From positions 1-47,491 of IMG/VR virus record IMGVR_UViG_3300037467_000655: a stretch of DNA of 47,491 nucleotides; one strand, given 5' to 3'. Source of the DNA: a virus. Within the stretch, counting starts at the first letter, position 1; each line of letters opens with the position of its first letter. Made by a program: the position numbers and the translations under genes. This document shows, one piece after another, positions 5,675-47,491 of the stretch. Below the pieces are notes generated by a model. The model was not told where the DNA came from, searched no databases, and saw nothing but the letters and a program-made list of their open reading frames with translations.

Positions 5675-7191
5675 ACCCATTTCCAGCAATCCGGCGAGCA
5701 TGGAACGCGCTACGTGTTAATCCAGCAAATCCTCAAACTGGCGGATATTTTTTCTTCGGACAGAATAGGGCTGGCGTACACGTTACGCACGAACTAGCTT
5801 TAACCGCATCCGCCGTATGGGCATGCATTGATGTAGTCGCGTCAAGCCTTGCGTCATCTGACTGGAACGTGTATTCCGGCGTTCGTGGAGGCGACAACAA
5901 GCAGGCAATACCTGATGACGGCCTGCAATATATCCTGAATACCCGCTTCAACCCCGAGATGACAGCTCAGGCCGGTAAGCGAGCAATGATGATTGCCGCT
6001 GTAGGGTATGGGAATGGGTACGCCGAGATAGAGCGTGATTTATCTCGCCGGGTTGTGGCTCTGTGGCCTATTTCGCCTGATCGTGTAAGCCCTGTTAGAA
6101 ACGAGTTCGGCAACTTTGTATATCGCGTAACACAGGATTACGCAGGCGGGACTGTCGATCTTGATCCTTCTGATGTCTACCACGTACGGGGCCCTAGTGT
6201 AATAGGCAGCGTAGGCGACGACATGATAGGCAAGGCCATTGAAACGATTGGCCGCGCTATTGCGATTGATCAGTTCGCCTCTGCTTACTTCGGGAACAAC
6301 GCCTCCATCGGGGTCATATTCCAACATAAAGGGAATCTTACTCCGGCGAAAAAAGCAGAAATAGAAGACGGCATTACAAAGCGTTACAGCGGCCCTAAAA
6401 AGTCCCACAGGCCAGCAGTTTTTGAGGGTGAGTGGCAAATACATCAACTCTCGAACGATGCTGATAAAGCCCAGCTCATCGAGGCCAAGTATCAAATGGT
6501 CGAGGAAGTATGTCGCTGGTTCCGCGTTCCCCCGCACAAGGTAGCGCACCTTCTTAGGGCGACGAATAACAACATAGAGCATCAAGGGCTTGAGTTCTCC
6601 CGCGACACACTAAGACCTTGGGTTCAAGAAATCCAGCAAGAGGCTGATTACAAACTGATTCCTGTTCGCGGCGGGAAAAAGTTTATCGAGATTGACGTTG
6701 ATTGGGCGTCTGAGGGCGATTTTCAAAGCCGCATGCAAGGATTCTCGACCGGCATTAATACCGGCGTCTATTCCGTCAACGACGTACTTCGCAAGCTAGG
6801 TGAAAACACCATAGGTTCAGAAGGCGATGTCCGCATGGTTCAGGGCGCAATGATGCGGCTTGAGGATGTCGGCAAGAACATGCTTCCTGCTCAACAAGGG
6901 ACTGATCAGCGGCGGCAGAAAGGCAAGCTGGTAGCAGAGGCGTGGTTATCCTCGGTTTATGCCAGAGTGCAAAGGTTTAACGGAAATCGCTGTGCCGATC
7001 TTCAAAAGGCTGGTCACAAGGATTGTCAAGCTAGAGCTGACAGAGATGCTGCTGAGTACGCCAAGAATCAATTAAGCGAACTGCGCGATGCTCTTGGCGA
7101 CAAGATGGAGAAGGCAATACAGGGCTCTATTGAAGTAATTAACGGACAGGACGCGGACATTGCCGCTGCTAAGGTTTTTGAGGGGAACTAA
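5665..7191 (+). CDS. Portal protein (HK97 family)
   Basis: 508 aa. 'LTASAVWACIDVVASSLAS', 'YHVRGPS', and 'RWFRVPPHKV' typical of Phage_portal. Confidence 0.9.
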   Translation: MALNPFPAIRRAWNALRVNPANPQTGGYFFFGQNRAGVHVTHELALTASAVWACIDVVASSLASSDWNVYSGVRGGDNKQAIPDDGLQYILNTRFNPEMTAQAGKRAMMIAAVGYGNGYAEIERDLSRRVVALWPISPDRVSPVRNEFGNFVYRVTQDYAGGTVDLDPSDVYHVRGPSVIGSVGDDMIGKAIETIGRAIAIDQFASAYFGNNASIGVIFQHKGNLTPAKKAEIEDGITKRYSGPKKSHRPAVFEGEWQIHQLSNDADKAQLIEAKYQMVEEVCRWFRVPPHKVAHLLRATNNNIEHQGLEFSRDTLRPWVQEIQQEADYKLIPVRGGKKFIEIDVDWASEGDFQSRMQGFSTGINTGVYSVNDVLRKLGENTIGSEGDVRMVQGAMMRLEDVGKNMLPAQQGTDQRRQKGKLVAEAWLSSVYARVQRFNGNRCADLQKAGHKDCQARADRDAAEYAKNQLSELRDALGDKMEKAIQGSIEVINGQDADIAAAKVFEGN

Positions 7192-13586: not shown

Positions 13587-14143
13587 AACTCATCACGCCG
13601 CCTTTAATAGAGCCAGTCTCTATCGCTGAAGTTAAAGAACAGATCGGGATTGCAGACAATGTTCTGGACGGCATCATTTCACGCCGCATCACTGAGGCGC
13701 GGAAATATGCGGAGGACTATACCGGCAGGGCCTTGATCACTCAAACCAGAGAGAAGCGCTGGGATAACTTTGTTGACGAACATGAACTGCCCTCTGCGCT
13801 GACTGTTGTTTCGTTCAACTATATTGGCGAAGACGGAACTGAGTATACGATTGACCCATCGTATTACGTTCTTGATACCTACGCGACAATACCATTTGTA
13901 AGACTCGCCTATGGCTATTCCTGGCCCTATAGGCGTTATGAACGTAACGCTGTAAGGATTCAGTACACCGCAGGCTACGGCTCAACAGCAGCCACCGTAG
14001 AGCCTCTGATACGTGAGGCAATCATCCTGCTCGTAGGGCATTGGATGAACCATCAAGGCCAGAACGAAAACGGCATAACAATTTCCCGCGTCCCGTATGC
14101 AGTTCGGGACATGCTAGACCCCTACAAGCTCTACTTCGTTTAA
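13583..14143 (+). CDS. Head-tail connector (gp6-like, Phage_connect_1)
   Basis: 186 aa. 'PPLIEPVSIAEVKEQIGI...RRITEARKYAEDYTGRALITQT'. Confidence 0.75.
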   Translation: MKLITPPLIEPVSIAEVKEQIGIADNVLDGIISRRITEARKYAEDYTGRALITQTREKRWDNFVDEHELPSALTVVSFNYIGEDGTEYTIDPSYYVLDTYATIPFVRLAYGYSWPYRRYERNAVRIQYTAGYGSTAATVEPLIREAIILLVGHWMNHQGQNENGITISRVPYAVRDMLDPYKLYFV

Positions 14144-14605
14144 ATGCACGCTCGGCAGCAAATCAGAGAGGCGGTTAAAACCATCCTCTCTAGGGCTCCT
14201 GTTGCCTGGAGTTCGGTAATCGGTTCACGCATTGCATCAACCATGCAGCGCTGGCCGTACCTGATGGTATTCGCCGACTCTGAACAGTCCGACGCGGTAA
14301 CGGTTAACGATCCTTGCGTCTATGACCGGACATTGATCCTGACAGTTGCTGGAATGCTGCGTCTACCTGGCACAGGGGATACGTACACCATCGAGGACAA
14401 GATGGATGAGTGCGCTGCTGAGATCGAGACGAAGCTCACTCAATCGGCATTGCGCGGCGAGGTCGCTCAAGTACAGACGCTATCGCTAGTCAGCACCAGC
14501 ATGGAAGTGGTTATCGAGGACGACGGCGTAGACCATGCCGAAGTAATCACGTCTTGGCGCATCGGTTACTCAACATTGGAAGGTTCACCAGAAACATTAA
14601 TTTAG
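14144..14605 (+). CDS. Tail completion/terminator-like protein
   Basis: 153 aa. The position just before the tail tube gene and a DUF3168-like N-terminus support it (weak). Confidence 0.4.
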   Translation: MHARQQIREAVKTILSRAPVAWSSVIGSRIASTMQRWPYLMVFADSEQSDAVTVNDPCVYDRTLILTVAGMLRLPGTGDTYTIEDKMDECAAEIETKLTQSALRGEVAQVQTLSLVSTSMEVVIEDDGVDHAEVITSWRIGYSTLEGSPETLI

Positions 14606-14614
14606 GAGAAGTTC

Positions 14615-15277
14615 ATGGCAAATATTTACAAGAATTCTGGTTTGGTGCTGGCGATGCAGAGCGCTGCCGGGACAGCTACTGCGATCACCACGTTCACCAA
14701 TGCAAACCCTGGCGTCGCTGGTGCTACAGGACACGGCCTGCTCGACGGCGACATTATCCTAACCACATCTGTTGGCATGATCGAGATTGATCAACGCATG
14801 TTCGTTGTGGTCAACAAGACAACAGACACCTTCCAGTTAAAGAACGCCGCAACCGGCGCGGTTGGAATCGACACGACCAATTACGGCGTATTCACATCCG
14901 GTACGTTTACGAAACTGACGCTCGGAACGACGATTCCCGGCGTTCAAGACTTCTCCCCCCAAGGTGGAGACATCAAGTTCCTTGATACCACTACCGTTTC
15001 CGATACTCGCGACAAGCAGATCGTGGGCGGGATTACTGCTATGTCCTACGCGATGACTATACAGTGGGACCCTTCCGACACTGCTCAAGCCGCCATGCAA
15101 GCCGCGTTCGAAACCGGCGCGGCCAAGGGCTTCCGTATCAAATGGCCGAATGGGCGCTACACGATGTTCTACGGCTCGGTTGGCTTTAACGGTATGCCTG
15201 GTGGAAGCAGCCAAGGTGTTACCACGACTCAGGCGGCTGTGTCGATGAATGGATTGGCTACCCACGGTATTCCGTAA
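14615..15277 (+). CDS. Major tail (tube) protein
   Basis: 220 aa, with AGGAG upstream. It immediately precedes the chaperone and tape-measure genes. Beta-rich composition. Confidence 0.65.
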   Translation: MANIYKNSGLVLAMQSAAGTATAITTFTNANPGVAGATGHGLLDGDIILTTSVGMIEIDQRMFVVVNKTTDTFQLKNAATGAVGIDTTNYGVFTSGTFTKLTLGTTIPGVQDFSPQGGDIKFLDTTTVSDTRDKQIVGGITAMSYAMTIQWDPSDTAQAAMQAAFETGAAKGFRIKWPNGRYTMFYGSVGFNGMPGGSSQGVTTTQAAVSMNGLATHGIP

Positions 15278-27540: not shown

Positions 27541-27669
27541 ATGAGCTTGGGCGACGTGTTTGGATTCATGAAAACAGACTGGACTTGCGCTCTCCTGCTT
27601 GTCGCTGTCGCTGGAATCTGTGGGTACAACTACTGGTTGAGGTTACACACGTGCGAGCCGGTTAATTGA
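27541..27669 (+). CDS. Small membrane protein (start uncertain; track ORF 27376..27669)
   Basis: The hydrophobic core is 'TCALLLVAVAGICGYNYW'. The upstream part of the track ORF overlaps the TraR gene, and no clean SD exists for any start. Confidence 0.3.
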   Translation: MSLGDVFGFMKTDWTCALLLVAVAGICGYNYWLRLHTCEPVN

Positions 27670-28403
27670 AAGTCCTTTTGCTGGACACGGAAACAGCGCC
27701 TCATCTCGCTTGGGTTTGGGGCTTATGGCAGCAAAACGTAGCAGTTAACCAGATAGAGGAAGCGGGGCATGTGCTTTGCTGGGCGGCTAAGTGGCTCGGT
27801 GAGGATGTTCAGTTTGCCAGCATTCAGAACGGTAAACCGCTTCAAATGCTCGGCAAGATTCACAGGCTACTAGATCAAGCGGATGTGGTAGTCCACTACA
27901 ACGGCAAGAAGTTCGACATACCAACTCTGAACCGCGAGTTCATTACTCACGGAATGCTTCCTCCTAGTCCCTATAAACAGGTTGATTTACTCCAAACCGC
28001 ACGTTCTCAGTTCAGGTTCCCAAGCAACAAACTTGAGTACCTACTTAAAGCCCTGAAGATTGGGCAGAAGGTGCAAACAGGCGGCTTTGAACTGTGGCTC
28101 GGCTGCATGAAAGGGGATAAAGCGGCATGGGAAAAGATGCGGGAATACAACATAGGCGACGTAATAGAGATGGAGAAGCTCTATCTCAAACTCCTGCCGT
28201 GGATCAAGGGGCATCCTAACCCGGCTTTGTTCTCTGCCGACAAAGAGATGTGTCCTGCCTGTGGCAGCCATGAGTACCAGCATCGGGGCTATGCGCGGAC
28301 TGGCGCTTATATCTACAAGCGGTATCAGTGCAAAGGATGCGGCAAGTGGTTCCGAGGCACTAAGAGCGAGGGCGGAAGGCAGGTTCAGAATGTGGCTGCT
28401 TGA
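27666..28403 (+). CDS. DEDD (DnaQ/RNase H-fold) 3'-5' exonuclease fused to a C-terminal zinc ribbon
   Basis: 245 aa. Exo I 'LLDTETAP', Exo II 'HYNGKKFDIPTL', Exo III 'YNIGDV', then 'CPACG...CKGCG'. It has a TTG start. Confidence 0.7.
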   Translation: MKVLLLDTETAPHLAWVWGLWQQNVAVNQIEEAGHVLCWAAKWLGEDVQFASIQNGKPLQMLGKIHRLLDQADVVVHYNGKKFDIPTLNREFITHGMLPPSPYKQVDLLQTARSQFRFPSNKLEYLLKALKIGQKVQTGGFELWLGCMKGDKAAWEKMREYNIGDVIEMEKLYLKLLPWIKGHPNPALFSADKEMCPACGSHEYQHRGYARTGAYIYKRYQCKGCGKWFRGTKSEGGRQVQNVAA

Positions 28404-28548
28404 CCCAAAGATTTTCAACTACGTAATCATGCTCCTGTATGGCCTGAATATAGCTCGCTGGCTTATAGCGGGCAGCATGGCAGACGCAATGTACTGGACA
28501 GGGGCTTTATGGATAACCGCAACGGTGACATTTGGATATGACAGATAA
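28390..28548 (+). CDS. Small two-TM membrane protein (52 aa)
   Basis: ATG 28390. The product is MWLLDPKIFNYVIMLLYGLNIARWLIAGSMADAMYWTGALWITATVTFGYDR. The longer track version overlaps the exonuclease gene. Confidence 0.45.
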   Translation: MWLLDPKIFNYVIMLLYGLNIARWLIAGSMADAMYWTGALWITATVTFGYDR

Positions 28549-28858
28549 CACAAAAACTACCTATGCCGGGAAGCTTGCAGCAATAGAAACCACGCATCTT
28601 CCTCCTTCAATCAATATAAATCCATTTGATAGGACGCATGAGGCAAAAGCCGCGCTATCGACACAGGTAGGTGGCAACCACTACTCGAAGCTGAAGATTC
28701 AGCCGGTAGAGTTTATTCATGCAAACAACATCCCGTTTATCGAGGGCTGCATTATCAAGTACGCCACTCGCTGGAGGGATAAAGGCGGCATTAAAGACTT
28801 GGAGAAGATCAAGCACTTTGTTGACTTGCTGATCGAACTTGAGGGCAAAGCGAAATGA
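28532..28858 (+). CDS. DUF3310 (SaV-like) protein
   Basis: 108 aa. 'QVGGNHYSKLKIQPVEFIHANNIPFIEGCIIKYATRWRDKGGIKDLEKIKHFVDLLI'. Confidence 0.75.
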   Translation: MDMTDNTKTTYAGKLAAIETTHLPPSININPFDRTHEAKAALSTQVGGNHYSKLKIQPVEFIHANNIPFIEGCIIKYATRWRDKGGIKDLEKIKHFVDLLIELEGKAK

Positions 28859-29013
28859 AATGGCTCAAAGGCTGGCCCGTAACGTACATGGGCATTGCCT
28901 CCCTCTCCGCTGGCTCATGGATCAATGGCGGGGCAGATGCAGGGCTTATTACCTGTGGACTCTGCCTCATCGTAACTGGACTTATTCAACTGGCAAAAGC
29001 ATGCAACTTATAG
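28855..29013 (+). CDS. Small two-TM membrane protein (52 aa; holin/antiholin candidate)
   Basis: ATGA overlap with DUF3310. The product is MKWLKGWPVTYMGIASLSAGSWINGGADAGLITCGLCLIVTGLIQLAKACNL. Confidence 0.45.
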   Translation: MKWLKGWPVTYMGIASLSAGSWINGGADAGLITCGLCLIVTGLIQLAKACNL

Positions 29014-29237
29014 ACAACTGGAAAGAAGTATTAACTCAAGCATGGAGCGTCAAGACCGGCGCACTGGCTGCATTGTTTGCGGGACTGCAGCAGGCATTGC
29101 CGATGATCCAGCCTGGCTTGATGGGCCTGACCCTTGAGCAGTCAACGGCGATAGGCGGGGTATTCGGTGCGCTGGGCGTTCTGTTCGGTGCGCTCGTGCC
29201 TGTAGTGCGGATATTCGATCAGGGTTTGGCGAAGTGA
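29001..29237 (+). CDS. Holin candidate (78 aa, two hydrophobic helices)
   Basis: ATG 29001. 'TGALAALFAGLQQALP' and 'AIGGVFGALGVLFGALVPVV'. It lies immediately upstream of the endolysin and is coupled to it (GTGA). Confidence 0.55.
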   Translation: MQLIDNWKEVLTQAWSVKTGALAALFAGLQQALPMIQPGLMGLTLEQSTAIGGVFGALGVLFGALVPVVRIFDQGLAK

Positions 29238-29698
29238 GCGAGAAACGAAGAGCAGTAGCTTTTTTTGCATTATCAGCTTCGGCGTTTGTCGCCCTTGCCA
29301 TGAACGAGGGGTATCGAGACACGGCCTACATGCCGACGCCTAACGACGTTCCGACCATTGGATTCGGCACGACAGAAGGGGTCAAGCTCGGGCAAACAAT
29401 CACTGTTCCTGCCGCATTGGAACGCGCTCTCCGTGACGTATCAAAGTTTGAGGGCGCTCTGAAGCAGTGCGTCACAGTCCCGTTGACTCAGAACGAGTAC
29501 GACGCCTACGTTGATCTTGCTTACAACATCGGCTCAAGCGCTTTCTGCTCATCAAGTCTCGTAAGGAAATTGAACAATGGAGACTACGCCGGGGCCTGCG
29601 GAGAGATAAAACGCTGGAACAGGCAAGCCGGGAAGGTATTGCCCGGACTCACTAATCGCCGCGAGAAGGAATACAAGCAATGCATGGGAATCGCGTAA
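29234..29698 (+). CDS. SAR endolysin (GH24 lysozyme)
   Basis: 154 aa. After 'EKRR' the N-terminus carries the weakly hydrophobic 'AVAFFALSASAFVALAM'. It also has 'NEGY', 'PTIGFG', and 'LVRKLNNGDYAGACGEIKRWNRQAGKVLPGLTNRREKE', like P21 R and P22 gp19. Confidence 0.85.
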   Translation: MSEKRRAVAFFALSASAFVALAMNEGYRDTAYMPTPNDVPTIGFGTTEGVKLGQTITVPAALERALRDVSKFEGALKQCVTVPLTQNEYDAYVDLAYNIGSSAFCSSSLVRKLNNGDYAGACGEIKRWNRQAGKVLPGLTNRREKEYKQCMGIA

Positions 29699-29973
29699 CA
29701 CTCGAAGAGGCAAAAGGGCGCGTGCTGTACGTGCGCTGCCACGTCAGCGACCAAATACCCGGCAAGTATTCCAAGGGGTTTGATCTTGAGGAGACGGAGC
29801 CCGGTATATGGGAGGCCAAGATTGCCGAGGAATCAATGACTCAAGATCAGAGGAGGGACTTTCAAAGAGCCGTGTTAGCCCGAGGCGATATTTTCAAGAT
29901 CATCTGGACGCGCTACGAGGAAAACAGAACAAAGCGCAGGGAAACGATTTTTCAACCAAAGAAGGAGAAGTGA
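29680..29973 (+). CDS. Hypothetical protein (97 aa, charged)
   Basis: The ORF overlaps the endolysin 3' end by 19 nt. No motif recognised. Confidence 0.4.
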   Translation: MHGNRVTLEEAKGRVLYVRCHVSDQIPGKYSKGFDLEETEPGIWEAKIAEESMTQDQRRDFQRAVLARGDIFKIIWTRYEENRTKRRETIFQPKKEK

Positions 29974-29976
29974 AAA

Positions 29977-30153
29977 ATGGCACAAAACGTGAAGATCAGC
30001 ATGGAAGTAACCGAAGCGAACGGCGACAAGTTTTTCGACGCGACGGTGAATTACTACAACTGCTCGCCCGCTGATGTCGTGAAGATCGAGGACAAGCAGC
30101 TTGGTGTGGTTCAGTCGCTTCACGCTGAAGCTCAAGCCGCTGTTGCTGGCTAA
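29977..30153 (+). CDS. Hypothetical small protein (58 aa, below track cutoff)
   Basis: AAGGAG lies 8 nt upstream of ATG 29977. The product is MAQNVKISMEVTEANGDKFFDATVNYYNCSPADVVKIEDKQLGVVQSLHAEAQAAVAG. Confidence 0.45.
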   Translation: MAQNVKISMEVTEANGDKFFDATVNYYNCSPADVVKIEDKQLGVVQSLHAEAQAAVAG

Positions 30154-30161
30154 ACCGGAAT

Positions 30162-30180
30162 GGGCCAGAAATGGCCCTTT
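30162..30180 (+). other. GNRA-loop hairpin upstream of the protease gene
   Basis: GGGCCA-GAAA-TGGCCC followed by TTT. It overlaps the track's 30171 start, which favours ATG 30204. Confidence 0.5.
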
Positions 30181-30203
30181 CCAAAACAACAATAAGGATA
30201 AAA

Positions 30204-31925
30204 ATGCGTTTCCTGCTATTCGTGTTGATGTCCCTGATTCCGTCCATCAGCTATTCAGACAAGCCGGAGAGGTTTGCTCACGGGCGAGTTTTGTTCATGC
30301 CTCGGGGAGGTCTGCCAGCGCATGAGCTTCAAAAGATTATCAAGGCCAAGAAGATAGGCCAGAGTGATTTATACGTTGCCGAAGTAGAGCATGGCTCAGA
30401 AAAGTCAGTAGTGGCCCGGTTGTCTCACAATCCACATTTCAAGTTTGCTGAGTTGGATTTGATCATTGAGCCAGAAACAATCCCGAACGATCCATATTAT
30501 TTCAACGCATGGCACTTGCCCAAGATCGGCGCTGATGCTGCCTGGGATATGTCGCAAGGAGCGGGTGTGACCATCGCTATCCTTGATTCCGGCGCTGATC
30601 CTACTCATCCAGACTTATCAAGCCGATTAGTTCCGGGCTGGAATTTCTTCGACAACAACTCGAACACTGCCGATGTTCACGGACATGGCACGATAGTCGC
30701 TGGCACTGCCGCTGCGGCAAGCAATAATAGCGTTGGTGTGGCTGCTGTGTCCGGTCAATCCCGGATCCTGCCTATCCGCGTTACTGATCTGACTGGATCC
30801 GGATACACAAGCATGATAGCAAGCGGATTGATTTACGCAGCAGATCATGGGGCGAAGGTGGCAAATGTCAGCTTTGCAAACATGCCTTCAAGGTCTGCCG
30901 TAATTTCTGCCGCACAGTACATGAAGGACAAAGGCGGTCTGGTTGTCGTCGCAGCGGGGAATAGCGGGATTGACGAAGGCTTCACTCCTACAACGTCCCT
31001 GATTCCCGTCTCCGCTACAGACGGCAACGACATGAAAGCCTCATGGTCAAGCTATGGCAGCTACGTTGCTCTGTCTGCTCCTGGAGTTGGTATATGGAGC
31101 ACTGCGAACGGCAGCGGGTACGGCTCTTACTCAGGAACGTCAGTCGCAAGCCCCGTTGCTGCCGGAGTTGTTGCCCTAGTGTTTGCGGCGAATGCCTCTC
31201 TGAAGAATACCGATGTAGAGAAGCTGATTTACTCTACCGCTGTTGACCTTGGCGACATGGGCCGGGATATCTATTACGGCTATGGCCGGGTCAATGCGTA
31301 CGGGGCCGTATCTGCCGCAAGAACGGCAATATCCACTGTTGACACTCAAGCCCCATCGGTTTCTATCACGTCTCCTGCTGACGGCTCGACAGCCTCAGGG
31401 CTTGTTCCGGTCGATGTATCGGCTTCTGATAACGTCGGTGTGAGTAGGGTAGAACTACGAGCAAACGGCAATTCCGTTGCTATCGACTCATCGTCTCCCT
31501 TCGCTTTTACATGGGATTCAACTGGTTCTCCAAACGGCACAGCTAAGCTCGTTGCTTACGCCTATGACGCTGCTGGCAACTTTGCCGCATCCGCTCCTGT
31601 TTCCGTCAACGTTTCGAATACGGTCATTCTCAGGCAAAGCGACACAACGCCTCCGGTTATTAAGATCGTCAATCCCGTTGCGGGGAATGTCTCTGGAAAC
31701 GTTGCGATCAGCATAAGCGCAAGCGACGACAGCGGTGCGGCTGGAATCAAACTGTCTATTTACGTCGATGACGTCCTCAAGGCAAGCGGCGCAGGAAGCA
31801 CGCTAGGTTATAACTGGAACACGAAACCGAAGAATTTAAGCGGATTGCATACGGTGAAGGCTGTTGCAACGGACGCAACAGGGAATTCCTCCTCAACTTC
31901 GGTAACTGTCAACGTTGTTCGCTGA
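30204..31925 (+). CDS. Secreted subtilisin-family serine protease (peptidase S8) with I9-like propeptide and two C-terminal Ig-like domains
   Basis: The signal peptide is MRFLLFVLMSLIPSISYS. The catalytic triad motifs are 'AILDSGAD', 'HGHGTIVAGTAAA' and 'GTSVASPVAAGVVAL'. Two repeats of about 95 aa start 'DTQAPSVSITSP...' and 'DTTPPVIKIVNP...'. AAGGA lies 6 nt upstream of ATG 30204. Confidence 0.9.
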   Translation: MRFLLFVLMSLIPSISYSDKPERFAHGRVLFMPRGGLPAHELQKIIKAKKIGQSDLYVAEVEHGSEKSVVARLSHNPHFKFAELDLIIEPETIPNDPYYFNAWHLPKIGADAAWDMSQGAGVTIAILDSGADPTHPDLSSRLVPGWNFFDNNSNTADVHGHGTIVAGTAAAASNNSVGVAAVSGQSRILPIRVTDLTGSGYTSMIASGLIYAADHGAKVANVSFANMPSRSAVISAAQYMKDKGGLVVVAAGNSGIDEGFTPTTSLIPVSATDGNDMKASWSSYGSYVALSAPGVGIWSTANGSGYGSYSGTSVASPVAAGVVALVFAANASLKNTDVEKLIYSTAVDLGDMGRDIYYGYGRVNAYGAVSAARTAISTVDTQAPSVSITSPADGSTASGLVPVDVSASDNVGVSRVELRANGNSVAIDSSSPFAFTWDSTGSPNGTAKLVAYAYDAAGNFAASAPVSVNVSNTVILRQSDTTPPVIKIVNPVAGNVSGNVAISISASDDSGAAGIKLSIYVDDVLKASGAGSTLGYNWNTKPKNLSGLHTVKAVATDATGNSSSTSVTVNVVR

Positions 31926-31986
31926 TTGCCCAAAATCTGAGCGATTTAAAGGCTCTACAATCGATTATTTTTGTTGAGGTAATGCA

Positions 31987-32487
31987 ATGCCATTCCTGGC
32001 GGCTTTAAATCCAATACACTGGCTCCTGCTGGCGTTTGCGTTGATTTCTACTGTTTTAGGTGGGTTGTACTACTTCCAAGGCAAGGAGTTTGAGCTAGAG
32101 AAGGCCCGACACGCTGCTTTCGTTGCAGAAACCAAGGCAGTCGGGCTAGTTCAGGAACGGAAGGGCAAGGAACAGAAGGAAAAGGACGATCAACGCAAAA
32201 AGGAAGCTGACCATGAAATCACTCTCGCTCGTAACTCTATCGCTGCTTATGCTGACCGCTTGCGCCTCGCCGCAAAAAATACCCGTAGCGGCTTATTGTC
32301 CTCCAGCACCGGAAGTCCCGGAAGTTCTGAAGGAGCCTGTTTCGACAGAGCCCAGCTTATTGCAGCGCTGGGGGAATACTCTGAGGAGATGGGATCAATT
32401 AGACGAGAAGCTACGGAACTCGTTATTGAAGGCGCAAAAGGCGTAGCTGATCTGGACGGGGCTAAGGAGTGGGCTCATGGTGAATAG
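31987..32487 (+). CDS. Rz: i-spanin (Rz-like)
   Basis: 166 aa. It has an N-terminal TM segment 'IHWLLLAFALISTVLGGLYYF', a charged coiled-coil body, and an embedded lipoprotein ORF. Confidence 0.75.
   Translation: MPFLAALNPIHWLLLAFALISTVLGGLYYFQGKEFELEKARHAAFVAETKAVGLVQERKGKEQKEKDDQRKKEADHEITLARNSIAAYADRLRLAAKNTRSGLLSSSTGSPGSSEGACFDRAQLIAALGEYSEEMGSIRREATELVIEGAKGVADLDGAKEWAHGE
32213..32446 (+). CDS. Rz1: o-spanin (Rz1-like lipoprotein) embedded in Rz in the +1 frame
   Basis: 77 aa. The lipobox is 'LLMLTA-C', and the mature part is Pro-rich ('CPPAPEVPEV'). It lies entirely within 31987..32487. Confidence 0.75.
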   Translation: MKSLSLVTLSLLMLTACASPQKIPVAAYCPPAPEVPEVLKEPVSTEPSLLQRWGNTLRRWDQLDEKLRNSLLKAQKA

Positions 32488-32641
32488 CGGGTGCCGGTTC
32501 GATTCCTGGATGCGTCTTGGCTGCTGCTAGCGCGACTTGCCAAGCTGCGTTCCATATTTCTCTTCCTATGTATTTTTCCGAATTGCCTAGATAAGTATTA
32601 TGCAATTTCCACCAGCGTTCAAATTCTTCCTTGCAGTCCAT
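32462..32641 (-). CDS. Hypothetical small protein (59 aa, below track cutoff)
   Basis: AGAGGGA lies upstream of the ATG. The product is MDCKEEFERWWKLHNTYLGNSEKYIGREIWNAAWQVALAAAKTHPGIEPAPAIHHEPTP. It is convergent with Rz and overlaps its 3' end by 26 nt. Confidence 0.35.
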   Translation of the reverse strand: MDCKEEFERWWKLHNTYLGNSEKYIGREIWNAAWQVALAAAKTHPGIEPAPAIHHEPTP

Positions 32642-32703
32642 TTATCCCTCTGTCATTTATCCAAAAATCGTATAGTAAATATATAGCAATCAGGCCGCGG
32701 ACA

Positions 32704-33681
32704 TTACCGCAATTTCTTTGCTATGTCCTCAGCGCTTTCCCTGTAATAGACCTGAAGCATTCTTAAATCCTTGTGTCCTATCGCTCTAGCAAGGGCGTTA
32801 ATGTCCAGTTTAGACGCTAGTCTAGTTACGGCCTCAGCGCGTGAGTCGTGGAAGTGCAAGTCTTTGATAAGAGCCCTGTCCTTTGCTTTCCTGAACAACG
32901 CATCAATCTGTTGCGTCTTTAAACAAAATACAGAGTCCTCGTTCCGATCCAGGCTCTTAAGAATCTCTATCGCTTTTGGAGATAGAGGGACATCTCTATA
33001 TGCTGCCCGTGTCTTTCCAAAAGTTTTGAGGTAAGACTTATCCAAATACACTCTATCCCACGTCAGACCGGCAATCTCTCCAGCCCTCATTCCAGTCTCA
33101 ATAGCAAAGAGAAAAGCTGCTCCAACTCTTGCTGATATCGTTGACGGAGTATTTCCGTCATAGCCCAGGATGTACAGTAGCGTATCTATTTCTTTCTCGT
33201 TGATGCGTCTGTCGCGCGATTGTGGGGCCTCTGGGCGCTTGACTCCCTTCATTGGATGCTTGGGTAGCCACTTCCACTCATCAACTGCTGTAGAGCACGC
33301 AGCAGATAGTATGTTCCATTCACGTCTTACACTTGCTGCCGAGACTGACTTGAGCCTTCTATCGCGCCATCCTGCAATGTGCGGCTGATCCAGCTCAACC
33401 AGCTTTACATTCGCTATCTCATCCTCTAGTAACAAGTTAATCCGCGTCTTTTCCCACTTCTCGCCGCGTTTCTTGCTGCTAACCTCATCCCTGTAACGTT
33501 CCATTAACGCCCGAAAGGTAATATCAGGAACGCCGCTTGCTTTGCCTGCTACAATTAGAGCCTCAGTGTCTGCTGCCCATTTAGCGGCCTGTGTTTTGGA
33601 GTCGAAAGTAGCGTGTTTCTCTACCCCTAGTTTTCGAATCTCGACATACCAGCCCTTACCCCTCTTCCTGATATACGCCAT
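32704..33681 (-). CDS. int: Tyrosine integrase
   Basis: 325 aa. It has an N-terminal SAM-like domain, 'ETGMRAGEIAGLTWDRV', 'HFHDSRAEAVTRL' and 'GHKDLRMLQVYY' (R..H-x-x-R..Y). Confidence 0.9.
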   Translation of the reverse strand: MAYIRKRGKGWYVEIRKLGVEKHATFDSKTQAAKWAADTEALIVAGKASGVPDITFRALMERYRDEVSSKKRGEKWEKTRINLLLEDEIANVKLVELDQPHIAGWRDRRLKSVSAASVRREWNILSAACSTAVDEWKWLPKHPMKGVKRPEAPQSRDRRINEKEIDTLLYILGYDGNTPSTISARVGAAFLFAIETGMRAGEIAGLTWDRVYLDKSYLKTFGKTRAAYRDVPLSPKAIEILKSLDRNEDSVFCLKTQQIDALFRKAKDRALIKDLHFHDSRAEAVTRLASKLDINALARAIGHKDLRMLQVYYRESAEDIAKKLR

Positions 33682-47250: not shown

Positions 47251-47491
47251 CCCTCCGCCGCGCCGCCAAGGTAGACGCAAACCAGCCTGAGATAGTCGAG
47301 GCATTCCGGCGCATGGGTTGTTCTGTGCTGATTATCAGTCAGCTTAAGAACTGCTGTGACATTTTTGTCGCTCGCGGCAAGACAGCAGCGGTTGAGATCA
47401 AGGACGGCTCTCTACCCAAAAGCAAGCGCCAGTTAACAGAAGGCGAAATGGATTTCATGCATTCGTGGAAAGGGCTGTATTTCATCGTTGA
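47247..47491 (+). CDS. PD-(D/E)XK nuclease (VRR-NUC-like), N-terminal part; continues at base 128 of the circle (= 3..173 of this window)
   Basis: ATG 47247 overlaps the upstream TGA (ATGA). The ORF stays open to the window end and continues in frame at the window start. Confidence 0.6.
   Translation, partial: MTLRRAAKVDANQPEIVEAFRRMGCSVLIISQLKNCCDIFVARGKTAAVEIKDGSLPKSKRQLTEGEMDFMHSWKGLYFIV
47365..47491. repeat. Terminal direct repeat, copy B (identical to 1..127)
   Basis: See copy A. Confidence 0.95.

Follow-up and report, generated by a model that had tools for sequence, protein, structure and literature searches.

The window analysed here is the whole 47,491-nt stretch of the IMG/VR virus record IMGVR_UViG_3300037467_000655 (positions 1 to 47,491), which belongs to a temperate phage whose host is probably an ammonia-oxidising Nitrosospira/Nitrosomonas (Nitrosomonadaceae). 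Its lysis genes comprise, in this order, a holin-like gene, a GH24 endolysin of the signal-arrest-release (SAR) type, open reading frames (ORFs) of 97 and 58 amino acids (aa), here called p97 and p58, an RNA hairpin, a gene for a secreted subtilase of peptidase family S8 (hereafter S8), and Rz with an embedded Rz1, followed by an integrase gene. Sequence comparisons point to S8 as an intact and exportable protease, a streamlined copy of a host exoprotease, inserted as a single gene into a pre-existing cassette. The order of holin candidates, SAR endolysin, intervening region and embedded Rz/Rz1 that an initial annotation had read from the sequence was recovered, its features falling at or near the positions first proposed. 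Features of the locus are as follows (coordinates in the window; those of other loci follow their designation, L001 and so on).

28839..29237, + strand: holin-like membrane protein (DUF7940); PF25612, 3.5e-08; phrog_1356 holin, 1.1e-06
29234..29698, + strand: GH24 endolysin with SAR-like N-terminus; PF00959 Phage_lysozyme, 2.5e-40; phrog_7 endolysin, 1e-49
29680..29973, + strand: p97, a charged, cytoplasmic 97-aa protein; overlaps the endolysin end by 19 nt
29977..30153, + strand: p58, a 58-aa protein with its own AAGGAG upstream
30157..30182, + strand: GNRA-tetraloop hairpin 3' of the p58 gene; core GGGCCA-GAAA-TGGCCC at 30162-30177
30204..31925, + strand: S8, a predicted secreted thermitase-type S8A subtilase of 573 aa, the inserted cargo gene (PF00082, 1thm, structural model, mapping against L338)
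30204..30257, + strand: Sec-type signal peptide MRFLLFVLMSLIPSISYS, then DKPE; cleavage predicted between SYS and DK by the -3/-1 rule
30258..30479, + strand: I9-like propeptide, aa ~19-92 (modelled beta-alpha-beta-beta-alpha-beta fold)
30480..31328, + strand: catalytic domain, aa ~93-375, with D128, H161, N253 and S313 (thermitase alignment, homologue alignment, model)
31356..31916, + strand: two Ig-like (Big_7) beta-sandwiches, aa 385-470 and 485-571 (PF17957, 2.8e-26, in two stretches; model strands)
31941..31971, + strand: degenerate intergenic motif (GCGATTTAAAGGCTCTACAATCGATTATTTT), upstream of Rz and downstream of S8 (conserved-motif comparison)
31987..32487, + strand: i-spanin (Rz-like); N-terminal transmembrane segment LLLAFALISTVLGGL, weak phrog_5777 match, position and embedded partner gene
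32213..32446, + strand: o-spanin (Rz1-like), inside Rz in another frame; phrog_456 'Rz-like spanin', 6.8e-4
32704..33681, - strand: tyrosine integrase (ORF; homologous 325-aa PF00589 integrases hold the same place in L001 and L002)

The longest S8 ORF opens at ATG 30171, within the hairpin, while ATG 30204 carries an AAGGA Shine-Dalgarno (SD) sequence, gives a product of 573 aa and agrees with the starts of the other phage copies. The S8 leader of the window (AATAAGGA-AAAA-ATG) also resembles that of those copies, AAGGA(N)CAA(R)AATAAATG. The product matches Peptidase_S8 PF00082 at 1.5e-45 (156.2 bits against a gathering cutoff of 21.8), and its nearest solved structures are thermitase 1thm (1.2e-56) and Ak.1 protease (1e-56), identity with thermitase being ~43% across the catalytic domain and the alignment with the mature enzyme opening at aa 94. 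Residues D128 (AILDSG), H161 (HGHGT) and S313 (GTSVASP), as well as the oxyanion N253 (AAGNSG), are invariant across 69 homologues, and the n/h/c layout of the signal peptide and its small residues at -3 and -1 can be read directly from the sequence. The AlphaFold model built on the 69-sequence alignment (predicted local distance difference test, pLDDT, 85.8; predicted template modelling score, pTM, 0.73) displays a subtilisin core and two beta-sandwiches, with a propeptide modelled over aa 24-88 (strands E24-33, E48-50, E57-60 and E79-88; helices H39-45 and H66-74) that a low-pLDDT, disordered linker at aa 92-100 joins to the core. Foldseek matched this model to unautoprocessed pro-subtilisin E 3whi (propeptide and core), fervidolysin 1r6v and ProN-Tk-SP, with TM(target) values of 0.89 for thermitase and 0.81 for pro-subtilisin E. 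The Pfam I9 model found no match in S8 at E <= 0.01, and no NCBIfam equivalog reached its cutoff for the protein.

As judged from sequence and model, S8 encodes an intact, exportable protease of the self-processing type. The Sec signal, I9-like propeptide fold, complete D/H/S triad and two Ig-like repeats that had been proposed for the 573-aa product are thereby borne out, the repeats as Big_7 domains, and the nearest subfamily, a check that the initial annotation had suggested, is the thermitase group of S8A. The enzyme shares with thermitase-type S8A proteases and with the fervidolysin layout (fervidolysin 1r6v, ProN-Tk-SP) the D-H-S order, the oxyanion Asn, an N-terminal alpha/beta propeptide and C-terminal beta-sandwiches, and differs from them in being phage-encoded, in carrying two Big_7 domains and in belonging to a family found mainly in Nitrosomonadaceae.

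What was inserted into the cassette can be read from a comparison with L338, a related phage locus with lysozyme, a p97 homologue (73% identity), a p58-like gene, a GAAA-tetraloop hairpin and Rz with embedded Rz1, and with no S8. Once 30204-31925 is left out, the window flanks align with the p58-Rz spacer of L338, the shared left flank including the hairpin loop and CAGAAATGGC, and the shared right flank reading CAAAATC-G-GCGATT-A-A-GC-CT-CAATCGATT. Homologues of p97 are few (58-73% identity) and lie directly 3' of SAR lysozymes in L338 and in L337, where the order is SAR lysozyme, p97 homologue (67%), p58 homologue (a 60-aa ORF, 55%), a UUCG-tetraloop hairpin and then the contig end; a p58-equivalent ORF is present in L338 and L340 too. 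The window hairpin folds at -18.3 kcal/mol (z = -4.6, none of 200 shuffles being as stable), and hairpins occupy the same position at L338:883-904 (stem changed, GAAA loop, z = -3.7) and L337:10511-10530 (UUCG loop, z = -3.9). Among these three, stem sequences diverge and pairing is kept through compensating changes, and the hairpin has the appearance of an element conserved in the mRNA of the endolysin-p97-p58 module.

The occurrence of p97, p58 and the hairpin in the S8-less L338, together with the flank alignment, thus assigns all three to the endolysin module, and the insertion, on this comparative evidence, is a bare SD+ORF unit (S8, 30204-31925, 1.72 kb) in the p58-Rz spacer of an already existing endolysin-p97-p58-Rz/Rz1 cassette. 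Of the 2.3-kb insert originally described, the S8 gene is therefore the part that stands as truly inserted, and the 97-aa and 58-aa ORFs with the hairpin are endolysin-linked, even if each of these features is present as first described, including the 19-nt overlap of p97 with the endolysin end, the AAGGAG of p58 and the GGGCCA-GAAA-TGGCCC hairpin. Two further roles were considered and rejected. The hairpin is not an S8-specific element nor a terminator parting S8 from the cassette, since it has no U-tract, and thus is no canonical intrinsic terminator (the terminator scan left it uncalled), and it is kept after p58 in the S8-less L338, as it is in L337, whose contig ends before any S8 is visible. 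The same two loci, in which p97 and p58 accompany the endolysin with S8 absent (L338) or not visible (L337), leave the earlier proposal that these proteins bind or inhibit the protease without comparative support, and a chaperone role is rejected on the same grounds.

Neither p97 nor p58 has a match in Pfam, PHROG or NCBIfam, and p97 shows no detectable homology to the ~105-aa proteins at the same position in L002 and L007. A HMMER search with p58 returned a few small homologues and repeat units (up to 11 stretches) in giant proteins, among them a 3115-aa protein with a CHU_C sorting domain of the type IX secretion system and a 1874-aa protein with PKD/RHS matches; the result is uninformative, and p58 may represent a small beta-repeat domain present only once. 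The podovirus-like contig L337 also carries, in its structural-gene region, an Rfam abiF RNA (RF03085, 50.7 bits, L337:7415-7451).

The origin of S8 lies in the presumed host clade. Its best 120 matches are full-length at 55-71% identity and are almost all S8 peptidases of Nitrosospira/Nitrosomonas or unnamed metagenome proteins, a few being labelled Rubrivivax, Noviherbaspirillum or generic Pseudomonadota. The closest relatives (60-71%) are chromosomal exoproteases of Nitrosomonadaceae, with P0002 at 71% and P0003 at 69%. In Nitrosospira sp. Nsp5 one S8 copy directly follows a gspC-M type II secretion cluster; next come two genes for PEP-CTERM-type proteins, then a second S8 paralogue, then a gene for a Kazal inhibitor. 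The P0002/P0003 metagenome contigs and Nitrosospira sp. Is2 have the gene at a conserved site between trpBA-accD-folC-cvpA-purF-metZ and an M48 peptidase gene. Host S8 genes are consistently flanked by genes for 250-275-aa XDD4 exosortase-dependent (PEP-CTERM) surface proteins (NF045504, 192 bits), which are candidate substrates or partners of the protease, and cyclic diguanylate (c-di-GMP)-I riboswitch aptamers (RF01051 / RF03167) lie ~145 nt upstream of the closest host S8 genes. The host-locus features are the following.

L011:4931-5758: XDD4-family gene by host S8 (NF045504)
L003:12545-13339 and 13879-14673: XDD4-family genes by host S8 (NF045504)
L004:12168-12905, - strand: XDD4-family gene by host S8 (NF045504)
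L006:8822-9583: XDD4-family gene by host S8 (NF045504)
L011:5978-6064: c-di-GMP-I riboswitch, 73 bits
L006:9774-9861: c-di-GMP-I riboswitch, GGC variant, 61.6 bits
L003:14980-15066: c-di-GMP-I riboswitch of the second paralogue, 67 bits

The same riboswitch search found none in the window or in any phage locus, and we know of no description of c-di-GMP control for this exoprotease family. Host proteins span 620-660 aa, with a long leader at the N-terminus and, following the signal peptide, a linker rich in Gly, and every phage copy has 570-584 aa and a short, plain signal peptide. The phage gene is, by this comparison, a streamlined copy of the host exoprotease from which the host 5' leader and the long N-terminal region have been lost, a capture that the initial annotation had not recognised, and the nesting of phage copies among cellular genes of the presumed host clade is that of a host-derived auxiliary gene. 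The gene context of the host enzyme, tied to type II secretion, exosortase-dependent surface proteins and c-di-GMP, points to a sessile or matrix lifestyle; these gsp and XDD4/PEP-CTERM neighbours and the riboswitch make a matrix or surface target the best guess. The Kazal-type serine-protease-inhibitor gene that directly follows the second paralogue of Nsp5 (L003:17383-18156) possibly encodes a cognate host inhibitor, and no counterpart of it was seen in the phages.

Both the identity ranking and the tree cluster the window S8 with the host sequences P0002/P0003/P0004, the copies of L001, L002, L007 and L341 with an Is2-type host group, and those of L010 and L340 near an N. multiformis-type group, though apart from each other, so that phage copies seem to hold at least three separate positions among host sequences. 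The L001 copy is a mosaic: its propeptide shares 82-87% identity with those of L002 and L007, its catalytic domain only 68-70% with theirs and 87% with a host-type sequence. These patterns would fit either several captures or a single old copy in phages that keeps exchanging sequence with the paralogues of its hosts during lysogeny. That the phage copies have the SD leader and the trimmed N-terminus in common speaks for a partly shared phage ancestry of the 5' end.

For the L002-L007 pair the ratio of nonsynonymous to synonymous substitutions (dN/dS) is 0.12, and for L001 against the Is2 host gene it is 0.08; two host orthologues give 0.15. Between the window copy and its nearest host genes dS is saturated, which makes the capture old. 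Judged from these values, S8 is an old gene in phages, kept functional by purifying selection. The same evidence bears on whether S8 might be a selectively neutral passenger, that is, a recently acquired host gene with no phage role. The host origin agrees with such a passenger, and so does the absence of S8 from most of the ~160 related loci sampled through the exonuclease gene. Considering, on the contrary, (i) a dN/dS of ~0.1 between phage copies, (ii) the saturated dS, (iii) catalytic residues intact in all copies, (iv) a 5' end streamlined in every phage copy and (v) retention in seven phage contigs with several different flanks, this already disfavoured explanation is very improbable.

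Those seven contigs carry the gene in different places: five before Rz, one after Rz/Rz1 and one after tail-fibre genes. L001, a 47.4-kb contig, has a GH24 lysozyme without SAR segment, a 98-aa p97-like gene, S8, Rz, a separate Rz1 and an integrase; L002 and L341 have a SAR lysozyme, a small transmembrane protein and/or an unrelated ~105-aa protein, S8, and Rz with embedded Rz1; and L007 has a GH19 endolysin (PF00182, phrog_181), a 109-aa protein, S8, Rz/Rz1 and a different integrase. In all four, the stop codon of S8 adjoins or overlaps the start of Rz. The order in L340 is SAR lysozyme, p97-like gene, p58-like gene, Rz/Rz1, a terminator-like hairpin with a T7 tract, S8 and integrase, and in L010 S8 (L010:10001-11722) comes last, behind the genes for the central tail fibre and the tail fibres. 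L010 is a siphovirus-like 52.5-kb contig with ThyA, DHFR, dUTPase, ligase and SbcCD-like genes and no integrase in the 21.7 kb read; it looks virulent, so that S8 carriage would extend beyond temperate phages and beyond lysis cassettes. An S8 copy is also present in L339, where the surrounding context is unclear. The suggestion that homologues be sought in other phage lysis cassettes was thus answered by L001, L002, L007 and L341 (before Rz) and by L340 (after Rz1).

Wider searches indicate that the gene is sparse. IMG/VR yielded three close S8 copies and two distant ones. Among GenBank phages, megablast of 28500-33000 gave no match and tblastn of S8 retrieved distant Bacillus-type S8s only, with no close homologue in cultured phages. 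Sampling of ~160 phage loci through the exonuclease gene (IMG/VR, metagenomes) encountered S8 only in two contigs already known, L173, the closest new relative sampled in this way, having a different architecture. The best integrase matches in GTDB genomes and IMG/VR are 48-57% identical, none being labelled Nitrosomonadaceae and none with S8.

This distribution also decides how closely the gene belongs to lysis. A core lysis component would hold a fixed position in relatives, and S8 is absent from L338, lies after the spanins in L340 and is outside the cassette in L010; by these comparisons it is not a core lysis gene. The initial annotation had S8 splitting the endolysin from the spanins, which describes the window well and is no necessity, given its position after Rz/Rz1 in L340 and after the tail fibres in L010, and a mechanistic link of S8 to the endolysin-spanin junction appears unlikely. 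A true lysis accessory would be a periplasmic S8 that cleaves tethers between the outer membrane and peptidoglycan, or a proteinaceous outer layer of the producing cell, and so speeds or completes lysis in the manner of LysB, an esterase, widely conserved among its group of mycobacteriophages, that acts on the mycolyl layer in the envelope of the producing cell. Placement between endolysin module and spanins in five phages, whatever the endolysin type, the translational abutment to Rz and the predicted Sec export to the compartment where endolysin and spanins act all agree with this, as does the reported precedent of the Listeria metzincin/TIMP pair (PMC8235301), in which a secreted protease of phage origin makes cells more sensitive to lysins. 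Like LysB, S8 is an additional hydrolase within a lysis cassette, plausibly matched to a host-specific outer layer; unlike it, S8 is a protease, is dispensable for the architecture (L338), varies in position (L340, L010) and is likely extracellular. Since a related cassette runs endolysin-p97-p58-Rz/Rz1 without S8, the gene stands after the spanins in L340 and beside tail fibres in L010, it copies an exoprotease that the host exports without lysing, and its Ig-like domains and type II secretion linkage point to extracellular action, we hold a direct part in lysis to be distinctly unlikely.

Expression signals around S8 were then considered. Consensus promoter and terminator scans of the window gave counts equal to shuffled chance, with no site flanking S8, and no Q-type antiterminator is recognisable in the window. 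The p58-S8 gap is only 50 nt and is filled by the hairpin and the SD sequence. The placement of S8 in the late array that had been proposed is upheld, in that the gene is co-directional with the late and lysis genes and no promoter or terminator signal above chance surrounds it. In L340 a strong terminator-like hairpin (L340:2942-2962) stops ~5 nt short of the S8 start as annotated, or ~20 nt short of the in-frame ATG that follows; it leaves no room for a promoter, and S8 there therefore needs terminator read-through, as happens in late operons under antitermination. Several terminator-like hairpins stand within the co-directional late array of L340, which suggests antitermination.

Between S8 and Rz in the window lies a copy of a conserved, single-copy motif, GCCCT(A/G)CAATCGATTTAAAT, which includes the palindrome AATCGATT, resembles a sigma-70 promoter and is often preceded by GGCGATT and by a TTGA(C/G)A-like hexamer 16 nt before TAAAT(T/C). 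Further copies were located as follows.

L001:9947-9966, just upstream of S8
L002:7335-7354, just upstream of S8
L007:5213-5232, just upstream of S8
L341:1542-1561, just upstream of S8
L338:933-952, upstream of Rz in this S8-less locus; called by the scan as TTGAGA-16-TAAATT, in a count within chance
L339:673-692, a variant upstream of S8, TTGACA-N15-TAAAAT

The position of the motif holds although the flanking coding sequences differ, and relative to it and to the spanins there are three distinct S8 insertion points. It could be a promoter or operator, an RNA element or a recombination site at a module boundary; a role as a general late promoter was rejected, as there is a single copy per genome.

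These signals bear on S8 as a lysogenic-conversion moron, in which expression from the prophage would supply the host with an additional exoprotease outside c-di-GMP control, for instance to remodel matrix, scavenge nutrients or cleave phage receptors and so exclude superinfection. As in a moron, S8 is an extra gene between p58 and Rz, which are adjacent in the related L338 cassette, it is host-derived, and it sits at the att/int-proximal genome end, a frequent cargo site in temperate phages; the sigma-70-like motif stands directly upstream of it in L001, L002, L007, L341 and L339, the L338 copy being called by the scan, and spanins co-expressed without endolysin would be harmless. On the contrary, S8 in the window lies upstream of the motif, with the preceding 50 nt taken up by hairpin and SD and no promoter-like site called; no terminator follows it, and transcription of Rz/Rz1 must pass through it; in four phages it abuts Rz translationally, and in L340 a terminator immediately precedes it; its GC equals that of its neighbours (0.51-0.52 over 30-32 kb against 0.50-0.53 on either side); and the virulent-looking L010, with no integrase in the 21.7 kb read, carries it too. 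Taken together, expression from the prophage is an unlikely explanation. With morons and auxiliary genes at large S8 shares its presence or absence at the same junction in relatives and its nearest relatives being host homologues; it differs from them in having, in the window, no detectable promoter or terminator of its own, in lacking a compositional shift, in not being a metabolic enzyme and in the unusual recurrent carriage of one family, possibly through several captures.

The reading that we prefer, with evenly balanced confidence, is that S8 is a late-expressed extracellular accessory protease, a host-derived secreted subtilase carried as cargo at the distal end of the late operon of a temperate phage. 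Late in infection S8 would be co-transcribed with the lysis genes through read-through, and Sec would carry its product to the periplasm before the holin fires, alongside the SAR endolysin, where it would autoprocess. It might get outside via host type II secretion and/or at lysis, and there degrade surface or matrix proteins, the XDD4/PEP-CTERM proteins encoded beside the host paralogues being the obvious candidates. Such proteolysis could free progeny from dense ammonia-oxidiser microcolonies or prevent their sticking to debris, and the protease would be accessory, not needed for envelope disruption itself. Matrix digestion, receptor destruction and lysogenic conversion, all raised in the initial annotation, are functions that can at present only be inferred, and the host context favours a matrix or surface-protein target.

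Several points weigh against this reading of S8 as lysis-timed cargo. Late timing is read from gene order alone, and secretion and activity are predictions; the link to XDD4/PEP-CTERM proteins and to c-di-GMP is drawn from the genes around the host copies and not from the phage itself; and, with a promoter-like motif upstream of S8 in four other phages, the gene could there be expressed apart from the late operon, which is the chief uncertainty of late-only expression in the phages other than the window. The S8-less relative L338 makes any benefit conditional, the temperate carriers apart from the window come from two JGI metagenomes of adjacent series (3300042904, 3300045996), so that the sampled breadth is narrow, and the S8 tree is a neighbour-joining one over 539 columns, without bootstrap.

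A more far-reaching proposal is tentative, and we regard it as doubtful. According to it, phages of ammonia-oxidising bacteria (AOB) have more than once (at least three lineages, perhaps five) captured a c-di-GMP-controlled matrix or surface protease of their hosts and rewired it to lysis timing, which would add to holin, endolysin and spanin a dedicated egress or dispersal function by which virions escape the exosortase-dependent matrix of nitrifier microcolonies.

Among known systems, Stx phages carry Shiga-toxin genes in the late operon of lambdoid phages, upstream of the holin, as cargo freed by lysis. S8 is likewise a Sec-exported, non-structural gene in the late unit by the lysis genes, with expression and release presumed to be linked to the lytic cycle and to terminator read-through. 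On the other hand, Stx targets eukaryotes and precedes the holin, and S8 copies a host housekeeping exoprotease, lies between endolysin module and spanins and has a late expression deduced from its position. Type 10 secretion systems are described as holin/endolysin/spanin cassettes that release chitinases or toxins (PMC10847048, PMC10101115); they resemble the present locus in that a lysis cassette is co-located with a secreted enzyme whose release may depend on it, and differ in that the window is a full phage genome (terminase, capsid, tail, replication, integrase, terminal repeat) and not a domesticated locus. Cultured phages, Bacillus phages among them, have S8 proteases (PHROG 3677) of the same peptidase family (phrog_3677, 5.6e-55; BFVD matches), with <=36% identity over less than half the protein, other hosts and domain sets, and no description in lysis cassettes.

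S8A enzymes, phage S8 proteases, late-operon cargo released by lysis and extra hydrolases in lysis cassettes are, thus, all already known. The combination of a host exoprotease repeatedly taken up by AOB phages, lodged inside the lysis cassette or at its end and lacking the riboswitch, was not found described. The literature searched, on lysis cassettes, on AOB phages and more broadly, held no description of a protease like S8, and the AOB-phage papers covered do not mention proteases, the coverage being incomplete, so that absence is not proof; this agrees with the initial annotation, which knew of no role for a subtilase inside a lysis cassette. Ammonia oxidisers live in tight microcolonies and flocs, little is known of how their phages leave the matrix, and such phages are now considered as nitrification-control agents. 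A host-derived exoprotease tied to lysis would, if the preferred reading is right, be a concrete dispersal factor, and it would exemplify how a phage can release a host enzyme from the c-di-GMP regulation to which it is normally subject. The endolysin-spanin interval and the distal end of the cassette would then be places where secreted cargo accumulates, and the Stx-type logic of release by lysis would extend to an environmental phage group, for which cassettes that have S8 ahead of the spanins, behind them or not at all provide a natural experiment.

Regarding the remaining lysis genes, the holin-like gene has its probable true start at ATG 29001 (78 aa) and encodes the hydrophobic segment VFGALGVLFGALVPV. 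The endolysin N-terminus bears a weakly hydrophobic, Ala/Ser-rich segment, AVAFFALSASAFVAL (Kyte-Doolittle, KD, 2.24), consistent with a SAR domain, and Rz1 has the lipobox LLMLTAC (LTAC) and a Pro-rich mature part. With its SAR-type GH24 enzyme, predicted i-spanin transmembrane segment and out-of-frame o-spanin lipoprotein, the cassette fits the definition of a SAR endolysin with two-component embedded spanins. A 95-aa ORF upstream of the DUF3310 gene (28261-28548) overlaps the end of the exonuclease gene, has hydrophobic segments (VIMLLYGLNIARWLI...) and no family match, and could be a small holin or pinholin candidate.

A 127-bp direct repeat (1-127 and 47365-47491) occupies both ends of the window, a whole JGI metagenome contig, which is therefore a complete phage genome of ~47.36 kb, circular or terminally redundant. 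Its layout is lambdoid-temperate: the rightward array starts with replication and nin-type genes (DnaB-like helicase, methyltransferases, NinB, HNH), continues through small and large terminase, structural genes, a PolB-type exonuclease subunit (27666-28403), a DUF3310 protein and the lysis genes, and stops at 32487, convergent with the tyrosine integrase, beyond which lies the leftward early region. The interval between spanins and integrase in L001, another variable cargo slot, encodes an HNH/NUMOD-type protein of 307 aa whose C-terminus has a lipoprotein-like segment (L001:12493-13416), and in L340 a full tRNA gene (6853-6936) adjoins the integrase and is a likely attachment site.

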